Assembly (NCBI GenBank): GCA_002786505.1
Contig: PCTK01000057.1
Coordinates: 3,242 to 28,690 of the forward strand
From: Nitrospinae bacterium CG22_combo_CG10-13_8_21_14_all_47_10
GTDB taxonomy: Bacteria > Nitrospinota > Nitrospinia > Nitrospinales > VA-1
DNA: 25,449 nucleotides
Direction of reading: 5' to 3'
Shown: one piece after another, positions 16,067 to 25,449 of the stretch
Layout of the letters: every line of letters begins with the position of its first letter
Position numbering within the stretch: the stretch's first letter is position 1
Made by a program: the position numbers and the translations under genes
The notes under the pieces: generated by a model
What the model was told of the DNA's origin: nothing
Seen by the model: only the letters and a program-made list of their open reading frames with translations
The model's database searches: none

Positions 16067-17425
16067 TCAGAGTGTTTTTTGGTACAGGTTGTGAATTTTG
16101 AGAATTTTATTGGTCAATGATTCAATATCCTCAGCAATGACCCGAATCATTTCTTCCTTTCTTATTCCCCCCAGATCGTAAATGATATCCGGCACCGAGC
16201 CATAATCCATAATTGCTTTTTGAGTACCCCATTCCAGGGAAGATCCCTCACGAACCCTTACATTCCTGGGTTCATCTGCCCTGTCAAAAGAAGCGATACG
16301 GAACCGGAGACGTTGACATATTTTCAACAATGTGTCCGTATATTTGATATTCATGACGGCGCGCTTTCCAGGGTCATAACGCATGACCGTTAAAACAATA
16401 TTTGCGACATGGCGGGAACCGCCAAACTCAGGCTCAGCACCGGTGAAAATATCATCCCCGTTTTTGACAATGCGCCCTGGAATGGCGAGGACATCCTCAT
16501 GATTTTTAGCATTTTTCAATGCCAACCCGATATTCGTTTGGACCTCGGGAACCAATGAACCGATTCTTTCTTTTCGAAATAACCGGAGCGCCCGATTCAA
16601 TCCGTCCATAACCTGGGCTTTTTCACTTTCCCTGTACAGTGAGGATAATGGGTCGACACTGGGCTTTCCATTCCCGGAAATCACTTCGCCAAGAATAGCC
16701 CGTCCAATAAAGGCCTTGGCTTCCTGGACTGCAGGCAAGGTCTGTAACCCGGAAGCCAGGCCTGCGGTAATCGCCGATGAAAAAACACAGCCTGTTCCAT
16801 GAGGGTCCGACTCCGATAAGCGCTCTGAGGTTAAAACCTGTAAACCATTATTATCCAGAAAAAGGTCTTCCGGTTTCCCTTTCAGGTGTCCGCCCGTCAA
16901 CACCACTGCCCGAACTCCCAATTTAAGGATTTTGCGTGCCGCACGTTTCATATCGGAGAGTTGGCGAATTTTTACCCCAGATAGTATTTCAGCCTCTCTG
17001 ATATTCGGAGTCACAAGATGTGCCAAAGGGAGCAAGCGTTCCTTCATCATCTCCACTCCCTCTGCGGTGAGCAGTCTTTTCCCTGAAGAAGAGAAAATAA
17101 CAGGATCAACAACCAGGTTTTTAACCCGGTAGCGTTTTAGCAGGGAAGCGATGCGGTCAACGATTTGCTCATTACCCAACATGCCTGTTTTTACAGCCTG
17201 GCATTTACCATCCTCAAAAATAGATTTTAACTGGCTCTCTACAACGCCAACCGGCAAATCATCCACAGCCTGAACTCCCAGGGTATTCTGGGAGGTAACC
17301 GAGGTGATTACTGTTTTGCCAAATACCCCAAAGGCAGAAAATGTTTTAAGGTCCGCTTGAATGCCAGCCCCACCTCCGGAATCCGACCCGGCTATCGTCA
17401 AAGCCACTACAGTTTTATCAGGCAT
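16067..17425 (-). CDS. thiD: HMP/HMP-P kinase (ThiD) fused to a ThiN-type thiamine-phosphate synthase (ThiDN)
   Basis: ThiD motifs TIAGSDSGGGAGIQADLKT, VKTGML, VVDPV, TPNIREA, HGTGC. C-terminal ~180 aa has LVPEVQTNI, IPGRI, PEFGGSRHVA, AVMNIKY, PDIIYDLGG..KE typical of ThiN. Confidence 0.9.
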   Translation of the reverse strand: MPDKTVVALTIAGSDSGGGAGIQADLKTFSAFGVFGKTVITSVTSQNTLGVQAVDDLPVGVVESQLKSIFEDGKCQAVKTGMLGNEQIVDRIASLLKRYRVKNLVVDPVIFSSSGKRLLTAEGVEMMKERLLPLAHLVTPNIREAEILSGVKIRQLSDMKRAARKILKLGVRAVVLTGGHLKGKPEDLFLDNNGLQVLTSERLSESDPHGTGCVFSSAITAGLASGLQTLPAVQEAKAFIGRAILGEVISGNGKPSVDPLSSLYRESEKAQVMDGLNRALRLFRKERIGSLVPEVQTNIGLALKNAKNHEDVLAIPGRIVKNGDDIFTGAEPEFGGSRHVANIVLTVMRYDPGKRAVMNIKYTDTLLKICQRLRFRIASFDRADEPRNVRVREGSSLEWGTQKAIMDYGSVPDIIYDLGGIRKEEMIRVIAEDIESLTNKILKIHNLYQKTL

Positions 17426-17510: not shown

Positions 17511-19331
17511 TCAGGCAACCGTTACAGATTTGGCAAGGGATCGGGGTTTATCGATATTACGCTTCAGCGAGGTAGCCGTAAAATATGCAAACAACTGCCC
17601 AATGACTAATTGAATCAAGGGAGCTGTCAAAGGTGGCACTTTGGGAAGAATCAGTTCTTCGCTATACAATGCTCCATTTTTTCCCTGCTCGGTGAAATGT
17701 ATTCCCAGAACAAAACCAGACCGGGCGCGAATTTCCTCTATGCTGTGCAGGGTAGCTTCATAAAGCGATTTATCCTCAGGGGGCGGGACAAACACTATTG
17801 AAGACACATCATCATCAATCATAGCCAGTGTTCCGTGCTTTAAAAATCCGCCGGGCATTCCTTCTGCATGGACGTAGGCAACCTCTTTCATTTTCAAAGC
17901 CGCTTCCAAGGCAATGGGATAATAAACTCCCCGCCCAAGATACAGCCAATTACGGGTCCCAGAATATTTATGGGCCAGACGATGAATAAAACCAGACCGT
18001 TCATTCAAAATTCCCTGAATAATTTCGGGAAGCTCCTGTAAAGCCCGCATATGCTGGTTATAGGTTTTTCGAGTGATCGCCTTCTTTTTCAAGGCAAGCT
18101 TCATGGCCAGCACGGTAAGTATCACCATTTGCGACACGGCGGCCTTGGTACTGATCACGCAGATTTCGGGCCCTGAGCCCTGAAGGACCACCTTATCAAC
18201 CAACCGGGCAATGGAAGAACCCATGACATTGACAACAGCCGCTGTCCGGGCTCCTTTGGACTTCGCATATTTCAAGGCCGAAAGAGTATCAAAGGTCTCG
18301 CCTGATTGCGAAGCGGAAAAAACCAGGGACTGCTTGTTTAAATTGGTCAACACCCTGAACTCATCGGAACTGATAGAGGGATAAAACTCCTGGGCTATCT
18401 GCGAAAAAACATATTTGGCATATTTGGCAACGTAAAAAGTAGTTCCCACTCCCAGCAAATAAGAGTTCTTGGATTTTGCAAACAACTCAACTATCTCATC
18501 CAGCCCTGAGGCTTCCAGATCCAACGCATTGGAAATAGTTTGAGGTTGTTCATAAATTTCCTTGAGCATGTAGTGGGGATAACCTCCTTTTCTAGAGGTC
18601 TCGCTGTCCCATTCAATTTTAGTAATGGGTTTGGTGATTTCCTCCCTGCTCAAAAGATTTTTCACGACATACGTGTCCCTGGAAAGTATGGCATATTCCC
18701 CATCATCCAGAATCACGGCATTTTTGGTATGATCAATGAAGGCGCTGAAGTCGGAACCTACAAATTTAATTTCATCGCCTATCCCCAGCATCAGCGGTGA
18801 TTCCCTTCTCGCGCAAAAAATCTGTCCAGGAAGATGGGAGGAAATAAACGCAATCGCATAGGTTCCTTCAATGAGGTTCAGCACCTTCACAAAAGCCTTT
18901 TCAATATCACGGCTACTTTTGTAAAATTTCTCCAGGAGGTGAGCAAGGACTTCGGTATCAGTTTCGGAAGAAAACTTAAAACCTTCCTTTTGCAGTTGAT
19001 CTCTCAAAGGACGAAAATTGGAAATGATCCCATTGTGGACCACAGCAAAATTCCCATCGTTTGAAGCGAAGGGGTGGGTATTATTCTGCGTTACTTTTCC
19101 GTGCGTAGCCCAGCGGGTATGGGCGATACCAATATTACTCTGTAATTGAAGAACATTGTGTTTGCGATAAACATCTTCCACACCACCAACATCCTTTTTG
19201 AGGATGAGGCGCGTTTTGTTCATCAAAGCCACGCCACAAGAATCATAACCCCTGTATTCCAGATTCCTGATTCCTTCAAAAAGAAGCTCAGATATATTTT
19301 TTAATCCAACAGCCCCGTTGATTCCACACAT
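17511..19331 (-). CDS. glmS: Glutamine--fructose-6-phosphate aminotransferase
   Basis: MCGI (catalytic Cys1), EYRGYDS, GIAHTRWATHG, HNGII, TDTE, SQSGET, STKA, ALKMKE, terminal PRSLAKSVTVA. Confidence 0.97.
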   Translation of the reverse strand: MCGINGAVGLKNISELLFEGIRNLEYRGYDSCGVALMNKTRLILKKDVGGVEDVYRKHNVLQLQSNIGIAHTRWATHGKVTQNNTHPFASNDGNFAVVHNGIISNFRPLRDQLQKEGFKFSSETDTEVLAHLLEKFYKSSRDIEKAFVKVLNLIEGTYAIAFISSHLPGQIFCARRESPLMLGIGDEIKFVGSDFSAFIDHTKNAVILDDGEYAILSRDTYVVKNLLSREEITKPITKIEWDSETSRKGGYPHYMLKEIYEQPQTISNALDLEASGLDEIVELFAKSKNSYLLGVGTTFYVAKYAKYVFSQIAQEFYPSISSDEFRVLTNLNKQSLVFSASQSGETFDTLSALKYAKSKGARTAAVVNVMGSSIARLVDKVVLQGSGPEICVISTKAAVSQMVILTVLAMKLALKKKAITRKTYNQHMRALQELPEIIQGILNERSGFIHRLAHKYSGTRNWLYLGRGVYYPIALEAALKMKEVAYVHAEGMPGGFLKHGTLAMIDDDVSSIVFVPPPEDKSLYEATLHSIEEIRARSGFVLGIHFTEQGKNGALYSEELILPKVPPLTAPLIQLVIGQLFAYFTATSLKRNIDKPRSLAKSVTVA

Positions 19332-19346
19332 ACTTATTTCGACCTG

Positions 19347-20552
19347 TTATTTATGTTTTACGGAGTAACATGCAGGAAGGACTTTGCCAGGCGCAACAAT
19401 CGTTCCGGGTTGAATGGTATTCCCGGCCCCGACAACAACCCCATCGCCGAGAAAAGCACCCAGTTTTTTCATTCCCGTTGCCATGGGCCGCTTCCCGTTT
19501 TTCACAGAAATCGGTTTCCAGTCTATGTCCCGGTTCACAGTCATGCACCCTGCCCCCATATCCACATTTTCACCCAGCACACTGTCGCCGACAAAAGAAA
19601 GCCTGCCTATCTGGGAATTATCCATCACTACACAGTTTTTTAATTCAACGCCACTGCCCACCGAACAATTTTTGCCAACAGAGGTATAGCTCCTGACAAG
19701 AGAGTTGTTGCCGATATAGCTTTTCTCTCCGATACAACAAGGCCCTTCCAGCACAGCACCCGATTTGATAATTGCCCCCGCCTCGATGCGGACAATCCCT
19801 TGCAGGGTCACATTGGCTTCCAGCGTTGCGTCTTTGGCAATGGAGGTCTCCTTCCAGGAATCCATGATCATCTTATTCGCCGTCAAAATTTCCCACGGAT
19901 AAACGACATCCAACCATTCATCTTCCCACATGGAGGCACGCAGTCCCTCCCCCGCAACCACTTTTTTCAACGCTTTCTCCATGGAGTTTCCTGAAGATTC
20001 CAACAATTTGAAAAAGGAGGCCGGCAATATGAATACCCCGGACAAAACATAATTCCCCAGGTTATTACCTTTGGGTTTTTCAACAATTTTTGTGATTTCC
20101 ATACGCGCATTCAGGAAAACATTGCCAAACATCTGGTTCGAGGGCGGCAAACATATAGAAGCCACCGGACATTTAAATGAATGAAAAGATTGCTGGATTT
20201 TGCTGAAGATATTATCCGCAGTCAGGATATCCCCGTAAGCAAGCAGGAAAAACTCACCTGGAAGAATTTTATTTTTAACCTGCAGAACCGCATGCCCGAT
20301 TCCCAGCTTGCGCTTTTGCTCCACGTGATGCAAATTCAACCCATTATGATCCTGTTGCTGAAGTTGTTCGATCAGCTTTTCCCTTTTGTGCCCCGCCACC
20401 ACAAAGATGTCATTGATGCCCGCGCTTTTAAGCAAACCAAAGGTATTGTCCAGTAAAGTACGCCCTGCAACTCCAATCATGGAGATGGGCCGGGTTTCTG
20501 AAAATGGACTGAGGTGAGCGCCTTCACCTGCGGAAAGGATTATGGCTTTCAT
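19347..20552 (-). CDS. Archaeal-type GlmU-like protein (nucleotidyltransferase fold + left-handed beta-helix) with substituted catalytic residues
   Basis: About 400 aa architecture MKAIILSAGEG...YGD...VEKP...WLD..YPW, hexapeptide repeats, and a GDS..GE...GAG....N...KLGAFLGD tail as in archaeal bifunctional GlmU. It has GAHL instead of GxRL, RPI instead of RPK, and RLSF instead of HLSY. Confidence 0.8.
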   Translation of the reverse strand: MKAIILSAGEGAHLSPFSETRPISMIGVAGRTLLDNTFGLLKSAGINDIFVVAGHKREKLIEQLQQQDHNGLNLHHVEQKRKLGIGHAVLQVKNKILPGEFFLLAYGDILTADNIFSKIQQSFHSFKCPVASICLPPSNQMFGNVFLNARMEITKIVEKPKGNNLGNYVLSGVFILPASFFKLLESSGNSMEKALKKVVAGEGLRASMWEDEWLDVVYPWEILTANKMIMDSWKETSIAKDATLEANVTLQGIVRIEAGAIIKSGAVLEGPCCIGEKSYIGNNSLVRSYTSVGKNCSVGSGVELKNCVVMDNSQIGRLSFVGDSVLGENVDMGAGCMTVNRDIDWKPISVKNGKRPMATGMKKLGAFLGDGVVVGAGNTIQPGTIVAPGKVLPACYSVKHK

Positions 20553-20595
20553 TTGAGAAAATCCTGATTGGGAAGGATAAAGTCAGCGACGAAGG

Positions 20596-21339
20596 TTAGC
20601 GATGATCCACCAGTAATCTCTCCGCCCGGTTCAAATCGTCTGGAGAATTGATTCCCAGTATCTCGTCGGCATCCTGAGTCTGAGTTGCCTGGACAGGATA
20701 CCCTTTTCGCACCAAATATTCTATCGTATCGGTCAAATAGTATTCCTTCTGAGCATTATCGGGGCTAATATGCTCTAAAGCTTTAAAAAACAAAGCACTG
20801 TCAAAACAATATACTCCGGAGTTAAATTCGTCAACTTTTTTCTCAACCTCCAACGCATCCTTGAGTTCGACGATTTTTAATATAGAACCTTTTTCATCAC
20901 GAATGATCCGGCCAAAATCATGGCATTCGCTACTTTTAAGGGTCAACACCGTACATTTTGCCCCACTCGCTTTATGCCCGGCAACCATTTTCAGCAGGGT
21001 ATTAGGCCTGATCAAGGGCATGTCCCCACATAACACTAAAACCAACCCGTCAAAGTTTTCCAGTTTAGCCTTGGCTTGTTGCGCGGCATGGCCGGTCCCC
21101 AACTGCTCTTTCTGAACCACGAACTCAACCTCCCGATCAGAAAAGGCTTCACGCACCTGGTCCGCCTGATGCCCCACCACGACTATTGTCCTGACGGGGT
21201 TCAATCGAGAGGAAAGGTCAAGTACATAATGAAGAAGAGGATGGCCTGCAACGGGGAGGAGAACTTTGGCAAGAGAAGACCGCATGCGGGTTCCCTTGCC
21301 CGCCGCTAAAATGATGACCGCTAGGTCTTGTTGTCGCAT
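20596..21339 (-). CDS. glmU: Stand-alone GlcNAc-1-phosphate uridylyltransferase (N-terminal domain of bacterial GlmU only)
   Basis: LAAGKGTRM..AKVL, QLGTGHA, CGDMPL, FGRI, IVE.KD, FNSGVY, NAQKEYYLTD, GINS are all intact. TAA stop at 247 aa in the linker helix, with no beta-helix domain. Confidence 0.9.
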   Translation of the reverse strand: MRQQDLAVIILAAGKGTRMRSSLAKVLLPVAGHPLLHYVLDLSSRLNPVRTIVVVGHQADQVREAFSDREVEFVVQKEQLGTGHAAQQAKAKLENFDGLVLVLCGDMPLIRPNTLLKMVAGHKASGAKCTVLTLKSSECHDFGRIIRDEKGSILKIVELKDALEVEKKVDEFNSGVYCFDSALFFKALEHISPDNAQKEYYLTDTIEYLVRKGYPVQATQTQDADEILGINSPDDLNRAERLLVDHR

Positions 21340-21602
21340 TTAATTTTATATTCGGCGATTTTTTTTCTTAACGTATTGCGATTGATTCCCAGAATATTTG
21401 CCGCCTTGGTCTGATTGCCGTCAGTTTCCTTCAGAACAATTTCAACAAGCGGTTTTTCAATGCCCCCCATGATAAGTTCGTGGAGATGGCCGTTGTTTTT
21501 TTCATCCATCGCACTGACATATTGACGGATGGATTTATCCAGCCATTTTTCTAAAAAAGTTGTGACTTGTTTTTGGGTTTTTTTCATTGCAGGGGGGTTC
21601 AT
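21321..21602 (-). CDS. Stand-alone Fis-family helix-turn-helix DNA-binding protein
   Basis: LHELIMGGIEKPLVEIVLKETDGNQTKAANILGINRNTLRKKI closely parallels Fis / the NtrC C-terminus. 93 aa (or start at 21587). The stop overlaps the glmU start by 19 nt. Confidence 0.9.
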   Translation of the reverse strand: MNPPAMKKTQKQVTTFLEKWLDKSIRQYVSAMDEKNNGHLHELIMGGIEKPLVEIVLKETDGNQTKAANILGINRNTLRKKIAEYKIKCDNKT

Positions 21603-21658: not shown

Positions 21659-21693
21659 GCGGCGATAGTAACAAACTCATTGCATGCGGTCAA
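21659..21693 (-). promoter_or_regulatory. Putative sigma70 promoter with GC-rich discriminator for the fis-glmU-glmS unit
   Basis: Minus strand TTGACC (21693-21688), 17 nt, TACTAT (21670-21665), followed directly by CGCCGC. Confidence 0.65.
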
Positions 21694-24931: not shown

Positions 24932-25249
24932 ATGATCAAAATAAAGGGTCTTGGTTTTGACTGGGATGTGGGCAATCGTGAAAAATGCCGAAAACACGGA
25001 CTTGACCTTTTAGAAATTGAAGCTTTTTTCCAGCAAAACCCTGTTTACATTACGCCTGATATCGACCATTCCCAAATGGAAAAAAGATATCTGGCCGCAG
25101 GTCGATCCTCGACAGAGCGTCTCATGTTGGTCGTGTTCACTTTTCGGGAAGGAGCGGGAGGCATACTGATCCGGCCCATCAGCGCCCGCTATATGCACAG
25201 GAAGGAAGCCAGAAAATATGAAGATGAAACTTCCAAAATTGAAAAGTGA
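24932..25249 (+). CDS. brnT: BrnT-family (DUF497) ribonuclease toxin
   Basis: GFDWDxGNxxK..KHG, DxxHS..EKRY..AG, LMLVVFTFR, IRPISAR....EARKYE. Confidence 0.9.
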   Translation: MIKIKGLGFDWDVGNREKCRKHGLDLLEIEAFFQQNPVYITPDIDHSQMEKRYLAAGRSSTERLMLVVFTFREGAGGILIRPISARYMHRKEARKYEDETSKIEK

Positions 25250-25449
25250 TAAGGAAGCAGAGGACTTTCTTGAAAAGGACCTCACAGACTACCTGGATTT
25301 AAAAAAATTCCGGAAGGTTTCCTTTGAGTTCCAACCCAAAACCAAAAAGGTCAATCTCCGCTTCCCGGAAAAACTTCTCGATGCGGTGCGGAAAGAAGCC
25401 AAACGGCAGGGTATTCCTTACCAGAAATACATCCGCCAGGCCGTGGAGC
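25218..25449 (+). CDS. brnA: BrnA/CopG-like ribbon-helix-helix antitoxin, 3'-truncated by the window edge (absent from the ORF track)
   Basis: Translated by hand: MKMKLPKLKSDKEAEDFLEKDLTDYLDLKKFRKVSFEFQPKTKKVNLRFPEKLLDAVRKEAKRQGIPYQKYIRQAVE... Overlaps the brnT 3' end by 32 nt and is preceded by AGGAAG. Confidence 0.85.
   Translation, partial: MKMKLPKLKSDKEAEDFLEKDLTDYLDLKKFRKVSFEFQPKTKKVNLRFPEKLLDAVRKEAKRQGIPYQKYIRQAVE

Follow-up and report, generated by a model that had tools for sequence, protein, structure and literature searches.

GlmU is regarded as a universal, essential and bifunctional bacterial enzyme, and as a drug target. Non-catalytic paralogues that combine a nucleotidyltransferase domain with a β-helix are also known, namely GMPPA, a regulator of GMPPB, GlgD, the partner of GlgC, and eIF2B γ/ε. 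At the other end of the pathway, entry into hexosamine synthesis is controlled elsewhere by the glmS ribozyme, by the small RNAs GlmY/GlmZ, or by GlmR. Here we analyze a 25,449-nucleotide stretch (hereafter the window) of contig PCTK01000057.1 from the Nitrospinae bacterium CG22_combo_CG10-13_8_21_14_all_47_10, in which a gene for a GlmU N-terminal domain on its own (the short protein, GlmU-N) precedes a gene for a two-domain, archaeal-type GlmU homologue (the long protein), itself followed by glmS. The reading we favor, with reasonable but limited confidence, is that GlmU is disaggregated in this organism into the short protein and an unlinked, stand-alone β-helix protein, and that the long protein is a GlmU-derived pseudoenzyme which binds GlmS.

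The bacterial bifunctional GlmU (E. coli, S. pneumoniae; TIGR01173) has domains that are individually active, and uridyl transfer proceeds without trimerization, which only the acetyltransferase needs (PMC10087520); a split between the two is thus biochemically unproblematic. The short protein is 43–50% identical to the N-domains of full-length GlmU and shares their pyrophosphorylase fingerprint, but its chain stops in the linker helix, without a β-helix domain, and the acetyltransferase would be the product of an unlinked gene of archaeal-type ancestry. Separately encoded GlmU domains have already been reported, in a survey of NagU-bearing bacteria that includes species with the N-terminal domain only, the C-terminal domain only, or both encoded separately (bioRxiv 10.64898/2026.06.23.733835), so that the split itself is a new member of a known phenomenon. 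Nevertheless, that survey deals with NagU-carrying genomes, whereas the Nitrospina genome has no NagU-type enzyme, and the preprint contains neither a dead two-domain paralogue nor a link to GlmS.

The long protein has the same two-domain architecture as ST0452 of S. tokodaii (PDB 2GGO/5Z09; TIGR03992), the family to which the stand-alone β-helix protein is also closest. It differs from ST0452 by the replacement of R13, K23, T80, H308 and Y311, all five, and by falling in a separate clade with Arg in place of His308 (the Arg clade), in which the nucleotidyltransferase triad is never intact. With GMPPA, GlgD and eIF2B γ/ε it shares the fold, the loss of catalytic residues, the retention of ligand-binding ones and, as we propose, a regulatory role in sugar-nucleotide metabolism. 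However, the partners of those proteins are catalytic paralogues that have their own fold, whereas the predicted partner of the long protein is the unrelated GlmS, contacted through the pseudo-nucleotidyltransferase domain.

Protein regulators of GlmS are known as well: B. subtilis GlmR/YvcK, which binds UDP-N-acetylglucosamine (UDP-GlcNAc) (PMC7525490, PMC6171935), and Salmonella EIIA-Ntr, a GlmS partner and regulator (PMC5024086). In these cases, a partner protein contacting GlmS adjusts the flow into hexosamine synthesis, in response to UDP-GlcNAc for GlmR, as we propose for the long protein; these regulators belong to unrelated families, whereas the long protein descends from the final enzyme of the pathway itself and co-evolves with a GlmS subfamily of its own. 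In a limited literature search, neither the Arg-clade pseudoenzyme nor its association with a subfamily of GlmS turned up.

The split of GlmU and its candidate parts

The split of GlmU is real in the Nitrospinales. The original prediction had described it as a true separation and not a simple frameshift, and both points hold: the open reading frames (ORFs) are in different frames, the 43-nt gap between them is present, the arrangement is lineage-wide, and the junction is indel-free in independent contigs. We looked for an assembly error at the junction and found none, as contigs from an independent metagenome agree with positions 20386–20703 throughout, with neither differences nor gaps. A further contig (7.6 kb, from a metatranscriptome library) spans the whole operon of a 97.6%-identical strain, with no indels inside the genes, although such an RNA-library contig does not prove a single transcript. 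An assembly error, a frameshift or a decaying pseudogene are ruled out, given these contigs and an architecture kept in more than 60 independent assemblies, closed genomes included.

We searched 41 Nitrospinales genomes from four families and eleven genera, several of which are closed. An orthologue of GlmU-N of about 250 amino acids (aa) is present in 38 of them and the long protein in 39, and the pair is side by side in 38–39 of the 41, at every place for which the coordinates of both genes are given. No GlmU match above the family cut-off occurs in any of the 41 genomes; a full-length bifunctional GlmU was found neither in the organism's own genome (87.6% complete) nor in its 40 relatives.

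The short protein retains the uridylyltransferase motifs originally attributed to it (LAAGKGTRM...AK, QLGTGHA, CGDMPL, NSG and GINS). It matches positions 2–236 only of the GlmU equivalog model (277 bits) and the N-terminal positions 2–238 only of TIGR01173 (261 bits, below the full-length cut-off of 366.85), and its residues 8–243 align to solved GlmU structures (E 2e-54). The pyrophosphorylase fingerprint of the bacterial GlmU N-terminus, L-X2-G-X-G-T-X-M-X4-P-K (PMC10087520), is present as L-AA-G-K-G-T-R-M-RSSL-A-K, with Pro replaced by Ala. The chain ends at a TAA stop, as had been noted, but 16 residues past GINS instead of just after it, and it carries no β-helix acetyltransferase domain, which membership in the bacterial GlmU family calls for. 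Across the order, the short protein is 53–61% identical, less conserved than the long protein or GlmS. Its sequence shows it to be derived from a bacterial GlmU by loss of the β-helix domain.

Other nucleotidyltransferases of the genome were considered. Its sole UDPGP-family protein matches UDP-glucose pyrophosphorylases with an E value of 5e-113 and a UDP-GlcNAc diphosphorylase with only 6.5e-13; a NagU/UAP-type substitute was therefore rejected, which leaves the short protein as the only plausible N-acetylglucosamine-1-phosphate (GlcNAc-1-P) uridylyltransferase. RmlA, in the rml cluster, and a ManC/MurU-like protein were also rejected as GlmU substitutes. From its motifs and matches, the short protein is thus very probably the enzyme of GlcNAc-1-P uridylyl transfer. 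The UDPGP-family gene itself (contig C206, L109:1423–2784, minus strand; PF01704, 479 bits) is of the eukaryotic type, with the above best E value against UTP--glucose-1-phosphate uridylyltransferase structures such as 5WEG, and the PF01704-type family was undetected in 14 control genomes.

For the acetylation of glucosamine-1-phosphate (GlcN-1-P), a search of the organism's own genome with the archaeal model uncovered, on contig C49, a 267-aa protein made of a short N-terminal remnant and a left-handed β-helix, which scores 154 bits against the C-terminal part of Arch_glmU (positions 248–393). The motif AGHFNYIGDS...ANL, with the catalytic-type His, Tyr and Asn that mark the acetyltransferase, is invariant in its 21 orthologues. 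The protein is present in 40 of the 41 Nitrospinales genomes and in all four deeper Nitrospinota examined, and was not found in the Binatia-labelled metagenome-assembled genome (MAG) G044, where a full-length GlmU is present. Its gene directly follows that of a phosphohexomutase of 690–725 aa in 23 of 24 loci. On C49 this mutase is 725 aa long (L105:6956–9133, minus strand), carries the TASHNP phosphoserine loop and the GTDG and SGTE motifs, exceeds GlmM by about 250 residues, and has bacterial and archaeal GlmM as its best family matches. Canonical GlmM was found in none of the 41 genomes, so that either this mutase or one of two PgmG-like mutases (contigs C91 and C158) must make GlcN-1-P.

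We consider the stand-alone β-helix protein, on the strength of these motifs and this gene context, a probable GlcN-1-P acetyltransferase. The original prediction had left two possibilities besides the long protein, an unlinked acetylating enzyme or a hole in the pathway. The former appears to be the case, and the presumed hole is most probably filled by the unlinked mutase–acetyltransferase gene pair. The pathway of a whole phylum of nitrite oxidizers would come in three or four separate parts, i.e., a variant GlmS, an unusual mutase, and an acetyltransferase and a uridylyltransferase that each stand alone.

Stand-alone GlmU-N proteins of 247–261 aa also occur in Zixibacteria, Ignavibacteria and unclassified lineages (L055, L062–L065, L070 and L071), with no full-length GlmU there. 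The stand-alone β-helix protein of the Nitrospinota type was not found, at the threshold used, in Zixibacteria, Ignavibacteria and one unclassified MAG with GlmU-N, and the pairing of the short protein with a stand-alone acetyltransferase is therefore not replicated in an independent phylum. The genomes of these lineages do contain N-terminal matches resembling Arch_glmU, inside longer open frames of 468–1504 aa; they may solve the acetylation step in yet another way.

The two catalytic sites of the long protein

With the Arch_glmU model (TIGR03992), the long protein gives an end-to-end match that passes marginally, with 294.3 bits for a cut-off of 292.1, and it aligns over its full length to ST0452 (PDB 2GGO; E 4e-49). 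In the nucleotidyltransferase domain, R13, K23 and T80 of ST0452 correspond to H13, I23 and I85; in the β-helix, H308 and Y311 correspond to R317 and F320. We take R13 and K23 to be the catalytic Arg and Lys of nucleotidyl transfer and T80 to belong to the same site, H308 to be the general base of the acetyltransferase (His363 in E. coli), and Y311 to be part of the acetyltransferase site (Y366 in E. coli). The residues by which either activity of Arch_glmU is recognized, R13/K23/T80 for the nucleotidyltransferase and His/Tyr for the acetyltransferase, are thus absent, and the loss of nucleotidyltransferase activity supposed for this protein from the start is supported by the replacement of its catalytic Arg, Lys and Thr.

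These replacements are not peculiar to one genome. Across 77 distinct long-protein sequences, almost all of them from Nitrospinota, Arg317, Phe320 and Ile85 never change. The residue at position 13 is variable (Asn in 40, His in 23, Lys in 12, Gln and Arg in one each), and position 23 is Lys in 10 sequences, this Lys having been lost in the Nitrospinia. In a wider comparison of 134 representatives of 50%-identity clusters, 74 have both His and the intact R13/K23/T80 triad, and every triad-intact homologue has His. Arg takes the place of His in 29 representatives, none with an intact triad, and it is in this distinct clade that the long protein falls.

The long protein nevertheless retains residues of the binding type, Q79, D108, G143, G172 and W213 in the N-domain and R287, E303, K305 and N340 in the β-helix, and it is 66–73% identical across the order, on par with GlmS. 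To judge from its sequence, this pattern is the signature of a ligand-binding pseudoenzyme, and neither that of a decaying gene nor that of the acetyltransferase half of a GlmU. It is quite probable that the long protein lacks both canonical activities. Source databases name proteins of this type "bifunctional GlmU"; since annotation pipelines label the dead paralogue in this way, metabolic reconstructions give it both GlmU steps and miss the likelier proteins.

The long protein and its GlmS

We surveyed the neighborhoods of 87 related loci. The order fis-short-long-glmS was found in 51, short-long-glmS in 13, and long-glmS alone in nine. The steadiest neighbor of the long gene is glmS, which lies directly downstream at every locus with sufficient flank. 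Several deeper Nitrospinota keep the long-glmS pair, with the short gene elsewhere, beside a second, canonical glmS. Two glmS paralogues are seen in the deeper Nitrospinota G041, G042 and G045 (L191–L193, L221 and L226), the canonical one adjoining GlmU-N and the divergent one the long gene; both types are likewise present in G053, which is related to the Binatia-labelled MAG. Of 31 relatives of this MAG, 19 have the long gene, and 17 of these 19 also have a full-length GlmU above the cut-off; at the six loci inspected, the long protein carries GRLSFVGDS and its gene lies 7 nt upstream of glmS. Farther away, glmS is immediately downstream of all five Arg-clade homologues (38–47% identical) from unrelated metagenomic bacteria, and immediately upstream of one member in an archaeal context.

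The GlmS of the window has the expected features of the family, with a score above the TIGR01135 cut-off (Table 1), an MCG start providing the N-terminal Cys nucleophile, two SIS matches, and 107 near-invariant columns in common with other GlmS. The GlmS encoded beside the long gene are nonetheless divergent. They score 600–655 bits with the glmS model, compared to 747–810 for those not beside it, and they are 46–59% identical to the window GlmS, a figure that drops to 34–39% for the other GlmS of these lineages. A branch with 100/100 support in a maximum-likelihood tree separates all 20 of the long-adjacent GlmS from nine others, which include paralogues from two of the genomes that also contribute a long-adjacent GlmS. 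This subfamily, which we call GlmS-L, provides the sole glmS found in each Nitrospinales genome checked (G000, G006, G013 and G025) and must therefore be functional. The Arg-clade long protein and the divergent GlmS subfamily thus appear to form a conserved two-gene module.

The complex of GlmS (residues 2–606) and the long protein (residues 1–395) was predicted without any alignment, in three runs and with three controls. The pair scored 0.79 in all three runs, whereas the best control scored 0.00; among the calibration cases, 51 of 78 solved complexes and 2 of 108 mismatched pairs attained this mark. On the long side, the predicted interface involves the pseudo-nucleotidyltransferase domain only (residues 1–211). 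On the GlmS side, it comprises the glutaminase active-site region (C2, R27, W74 and N100–I102), the inter-domain hinge (234–252), an isomerase segment (439–454) and part of the C-terminal tail.

Since the fold was made without alignments, conservation serves as an independent check of this interface. Within GlmS-L, the interface positions are more conserved than the rest (0.73 versus 0.61, p = 0.03), whereas the same positions are not more conserved in other GlmS (0.54 versus 0.59). Several interface residues are fixed only in GlmS-L, namely E177, F195, N196, T237, D242, P252, the segment LNE(R/K)SGF (442–448) with its one-residue insertion, and K590. On the other partner, the interface falls on insertions that only the Arg clade has (97–98, 124–128 and 149) and includes the hydrophobic residues L135, Y168 and I208, where catalytic homologues carry Glu or Lys; the conservation shift of this surface has a p value of about 1e-4. 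The model and these patterns together make it fairly likely that the long protein binds GlmS.

In the mechanism that we propose, the short protein would catalyze uridylyl transfer to GlcNAc-1-P and the unlinked protein of about 267 aa, of archaeal-type ancestry, would acetylate GlcN-1-P. The long protein would catalyze nothing in either domain while keeping its ligand-binding residues, and its N-domain would most likely bind GlmS over both the active site of the glutaminase and the hinge between the domains, as the model predicts. By analogy with GMPPA and GlgD on the one hand and with GlmR and EIIA-Ntr on the other, it might then be a non-catalytic subunit or a regulator of GlmS that senses a metabolite of the pathway (UDP-GlcNAc or GlcNAc-1-P, for example), both the identity of this ligand and the direction of the effect being speculative. 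We put forward the role of metabolite-sensing regulator only tentatively. More generally, we hypothesize, with similar caution, that the Arg-clade double pseudoenzymes of several phyla could be obligate partners of a dedicated GlmS subfamily, their dead pockets sensing UDP-GlcNAc or GlcNAc-1-P while the N-domain clamps the glutaminase site and the hinge, which would provide protein-level feedback on hexosamine entry. Should the predicted complex be real, it would represent an undescribed control of the committed step of amino-sugar synthesis, and a clear case of the last enzyme of a pathway recycled as a sensor for its first.

Other explanations of the long protein have to be weighed against this one. 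According to the original prediction, the short and long proteins rebuild a GlmU, perhaps as a hetero-oligomer, the former carrying out uridylyl transfer and the latter acetylating GlcN-1-P through its β-helix. The two genes are indeed adjacent and apparently co-transcribed across the Nitrospinales, the R287, K305, E303 and N340 kept in the β-helix align with ligands of the GlcN-1-P phosphate and sugar, and the long protein is still above the Arch_glmU cut-off. Nevertheless, the role of acetyltransferase half is not borne out, as the replacements of His308 by Arg and Tyr311 by Phe are invariant in the long sequences, whereas all triad-intact homologues have His. Moreover, deeper Nitrospinota keep the long-glmS pair with the short gene encoded elsewhere, glmS being the steadier neighbor, the relatives of the Binatia-labelled MAG have the long gene alongside a full-length GlmU, and a separate β-helix protein with intact catalytic residues co-occurs with the short gene throughout the Nitrospinota. 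We therefore regard a GlmU rebuilt from these two proteins as quite improbable. The long protein could also still be an enzyme, with a changed reaction (another acyl acceptor or donor, or nucleotidyl transfer by other residues), working on or beside GlmS in a channelled hexosamine pathway. Such a function would fit with the strong purifying selection on the protein, in which the replacing residues Arg317 and Ile85 are themselves invariant, with the many substrate-binding residues kept, and with the tight linkage to GlmS and the predicted contact. It is unlikely, however, given that the catalytic Arg found universally at position 13 in sugar nucleotidyltransferases gives way here to a freely variable residue (His, Asn, Lys, Gln or Glu), that Lys23 is lost in the Nitrospinia, and that an Arg side chain is a poor general base; moreover, no GlmU-type site that functions with an Arg is known to us.

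Finally, the long protein might be non-catalytic and its contact with GlmS a false positive, its actual role being to form mixed β-helix trimers with the stand-alone acetyltransferase, to act as a scaffold for the short protein, or to buffer a metabolite. Pseudoenzyme relatives are known to pair with catalytic paralogues through the β-helix (GMPPA with GMPPB, GlgD with GlgC), and gene neighbors occasionally clear the complex test fortuitously: of 44 neighboring pairs chosen blind for an older calibration, 7 also passed, the score being the model's own confidence. On the other hand, the controls fell far short of the score of the pair, the interface matches clade-specific conserved residues on both proteins, and GlmS-L is strictly co-inherited with the long gene, even in lineages without an adjacent short gene or without the stand-alone acetyltransferase; we regard this reading, taken as a whole, as very unlikely. 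Besides this older calibration, a few other observations count against a GlmS-binding pseudoenzyme beside a disaggregated GlmU. A distant Arg-clade member, P0143 (33% identity), has no glmS nearby, and glmU-glmS operons are classical, so that adjacency to glmS alone gives no proof of physical contact. The conservation tests compare few, interrelated sequences, in groups defined by the very feature under study, and are supportive, not conclusive. An Arg-bearing site could support a different chemistry, and the marginal Arch_glmU pass and the kept sugar-phosphate-binding residues may leave room for a residual or altered activity. The assignment of the stand-alone protein as an acetyltransferase is drawn entirely from motifs and gene context.

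Features of the locus and its occurrence

All the genes of the unit lie on the minus strand of the window (Table 1). The long ORF ends 15 nt before the start of glmS, and the first 19 nt of the short gene also belong to the fis-like gene. Within the fis-short-long-glmS unit, the minus strand shows no terminator-like site, and no Rfam family, the glmS ribozyme included, was found in the window.

Table 1. Coordinates of the fis-short-long-glmS unit in the window, in order along the minus strand.
Feature	Positions	Strand	Remarks
Promoter-like site, candidate operon promoter	21665–21693	−	TTGACC-17-TACTAT with TG; 9/12 consensus matches; consensus match only
fis-like gene, 93-aa Fis-family helix-turn-helix protein, first gene of the unit	21321–21602	−	HTH_8 1.2e-14; Fis model NF001659 75 bits, below the cut-off of 99
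Short gene (GlmU-N), 247 aa, bacterial GlmU N-domain and part of the linker helix	20596–21339	−	Stop TAA at 20596–20598
Intergenic gap between short and long, 43 nt	20553–20595	−	Flanking ORFs in different frames
Long gene, 401-aa archaeal-type GlmU homologue, NTP-transferase and left-handed β-helix	19347–20552	−	Both catalytic sites degenerate
glmS, divergent long-associated subfamily (GlmS-L)	17511–19331	−	TIGR01135 637 bits, cut-off 418

The fis-like gene precedes the short-long-glmS genes in the 51 loci of the 87 counted above. At a distant metagenomic locus (L228:1289–2695), its place is taken by a gene for a 463-aa protein with AAA_lid_14 and HTH_8, a domain pair resembling that of sigma-54 activators, followed by the short gene, the long gene, glmS and the long mutase. 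Downstream of glmS in the window lies a 452-aa ORF (16067–17425, minus strand), the N-terminal part of which resembles, by eye, the hydroxymethylpyrimidine phosphate kinase ThiD, with an extra C-terminal domain. At the end of the window, on the plus strand (24932–25448), two small ORFs overlap, one of 105 aa and the other of at least 77 aa, and look, also by eye, like a toxin-antitoxin pair of the BrnT/BrnA type.

The segment 17400–21750 of the window is matched in metagenomes from groundwater, sediment, soil and hot springs. The 97.6%-identical strain mentioned above is present in three groundwater metatranscriptome libraries, in one of which the whole operon is recovered as a single contig with a word depth of 126.

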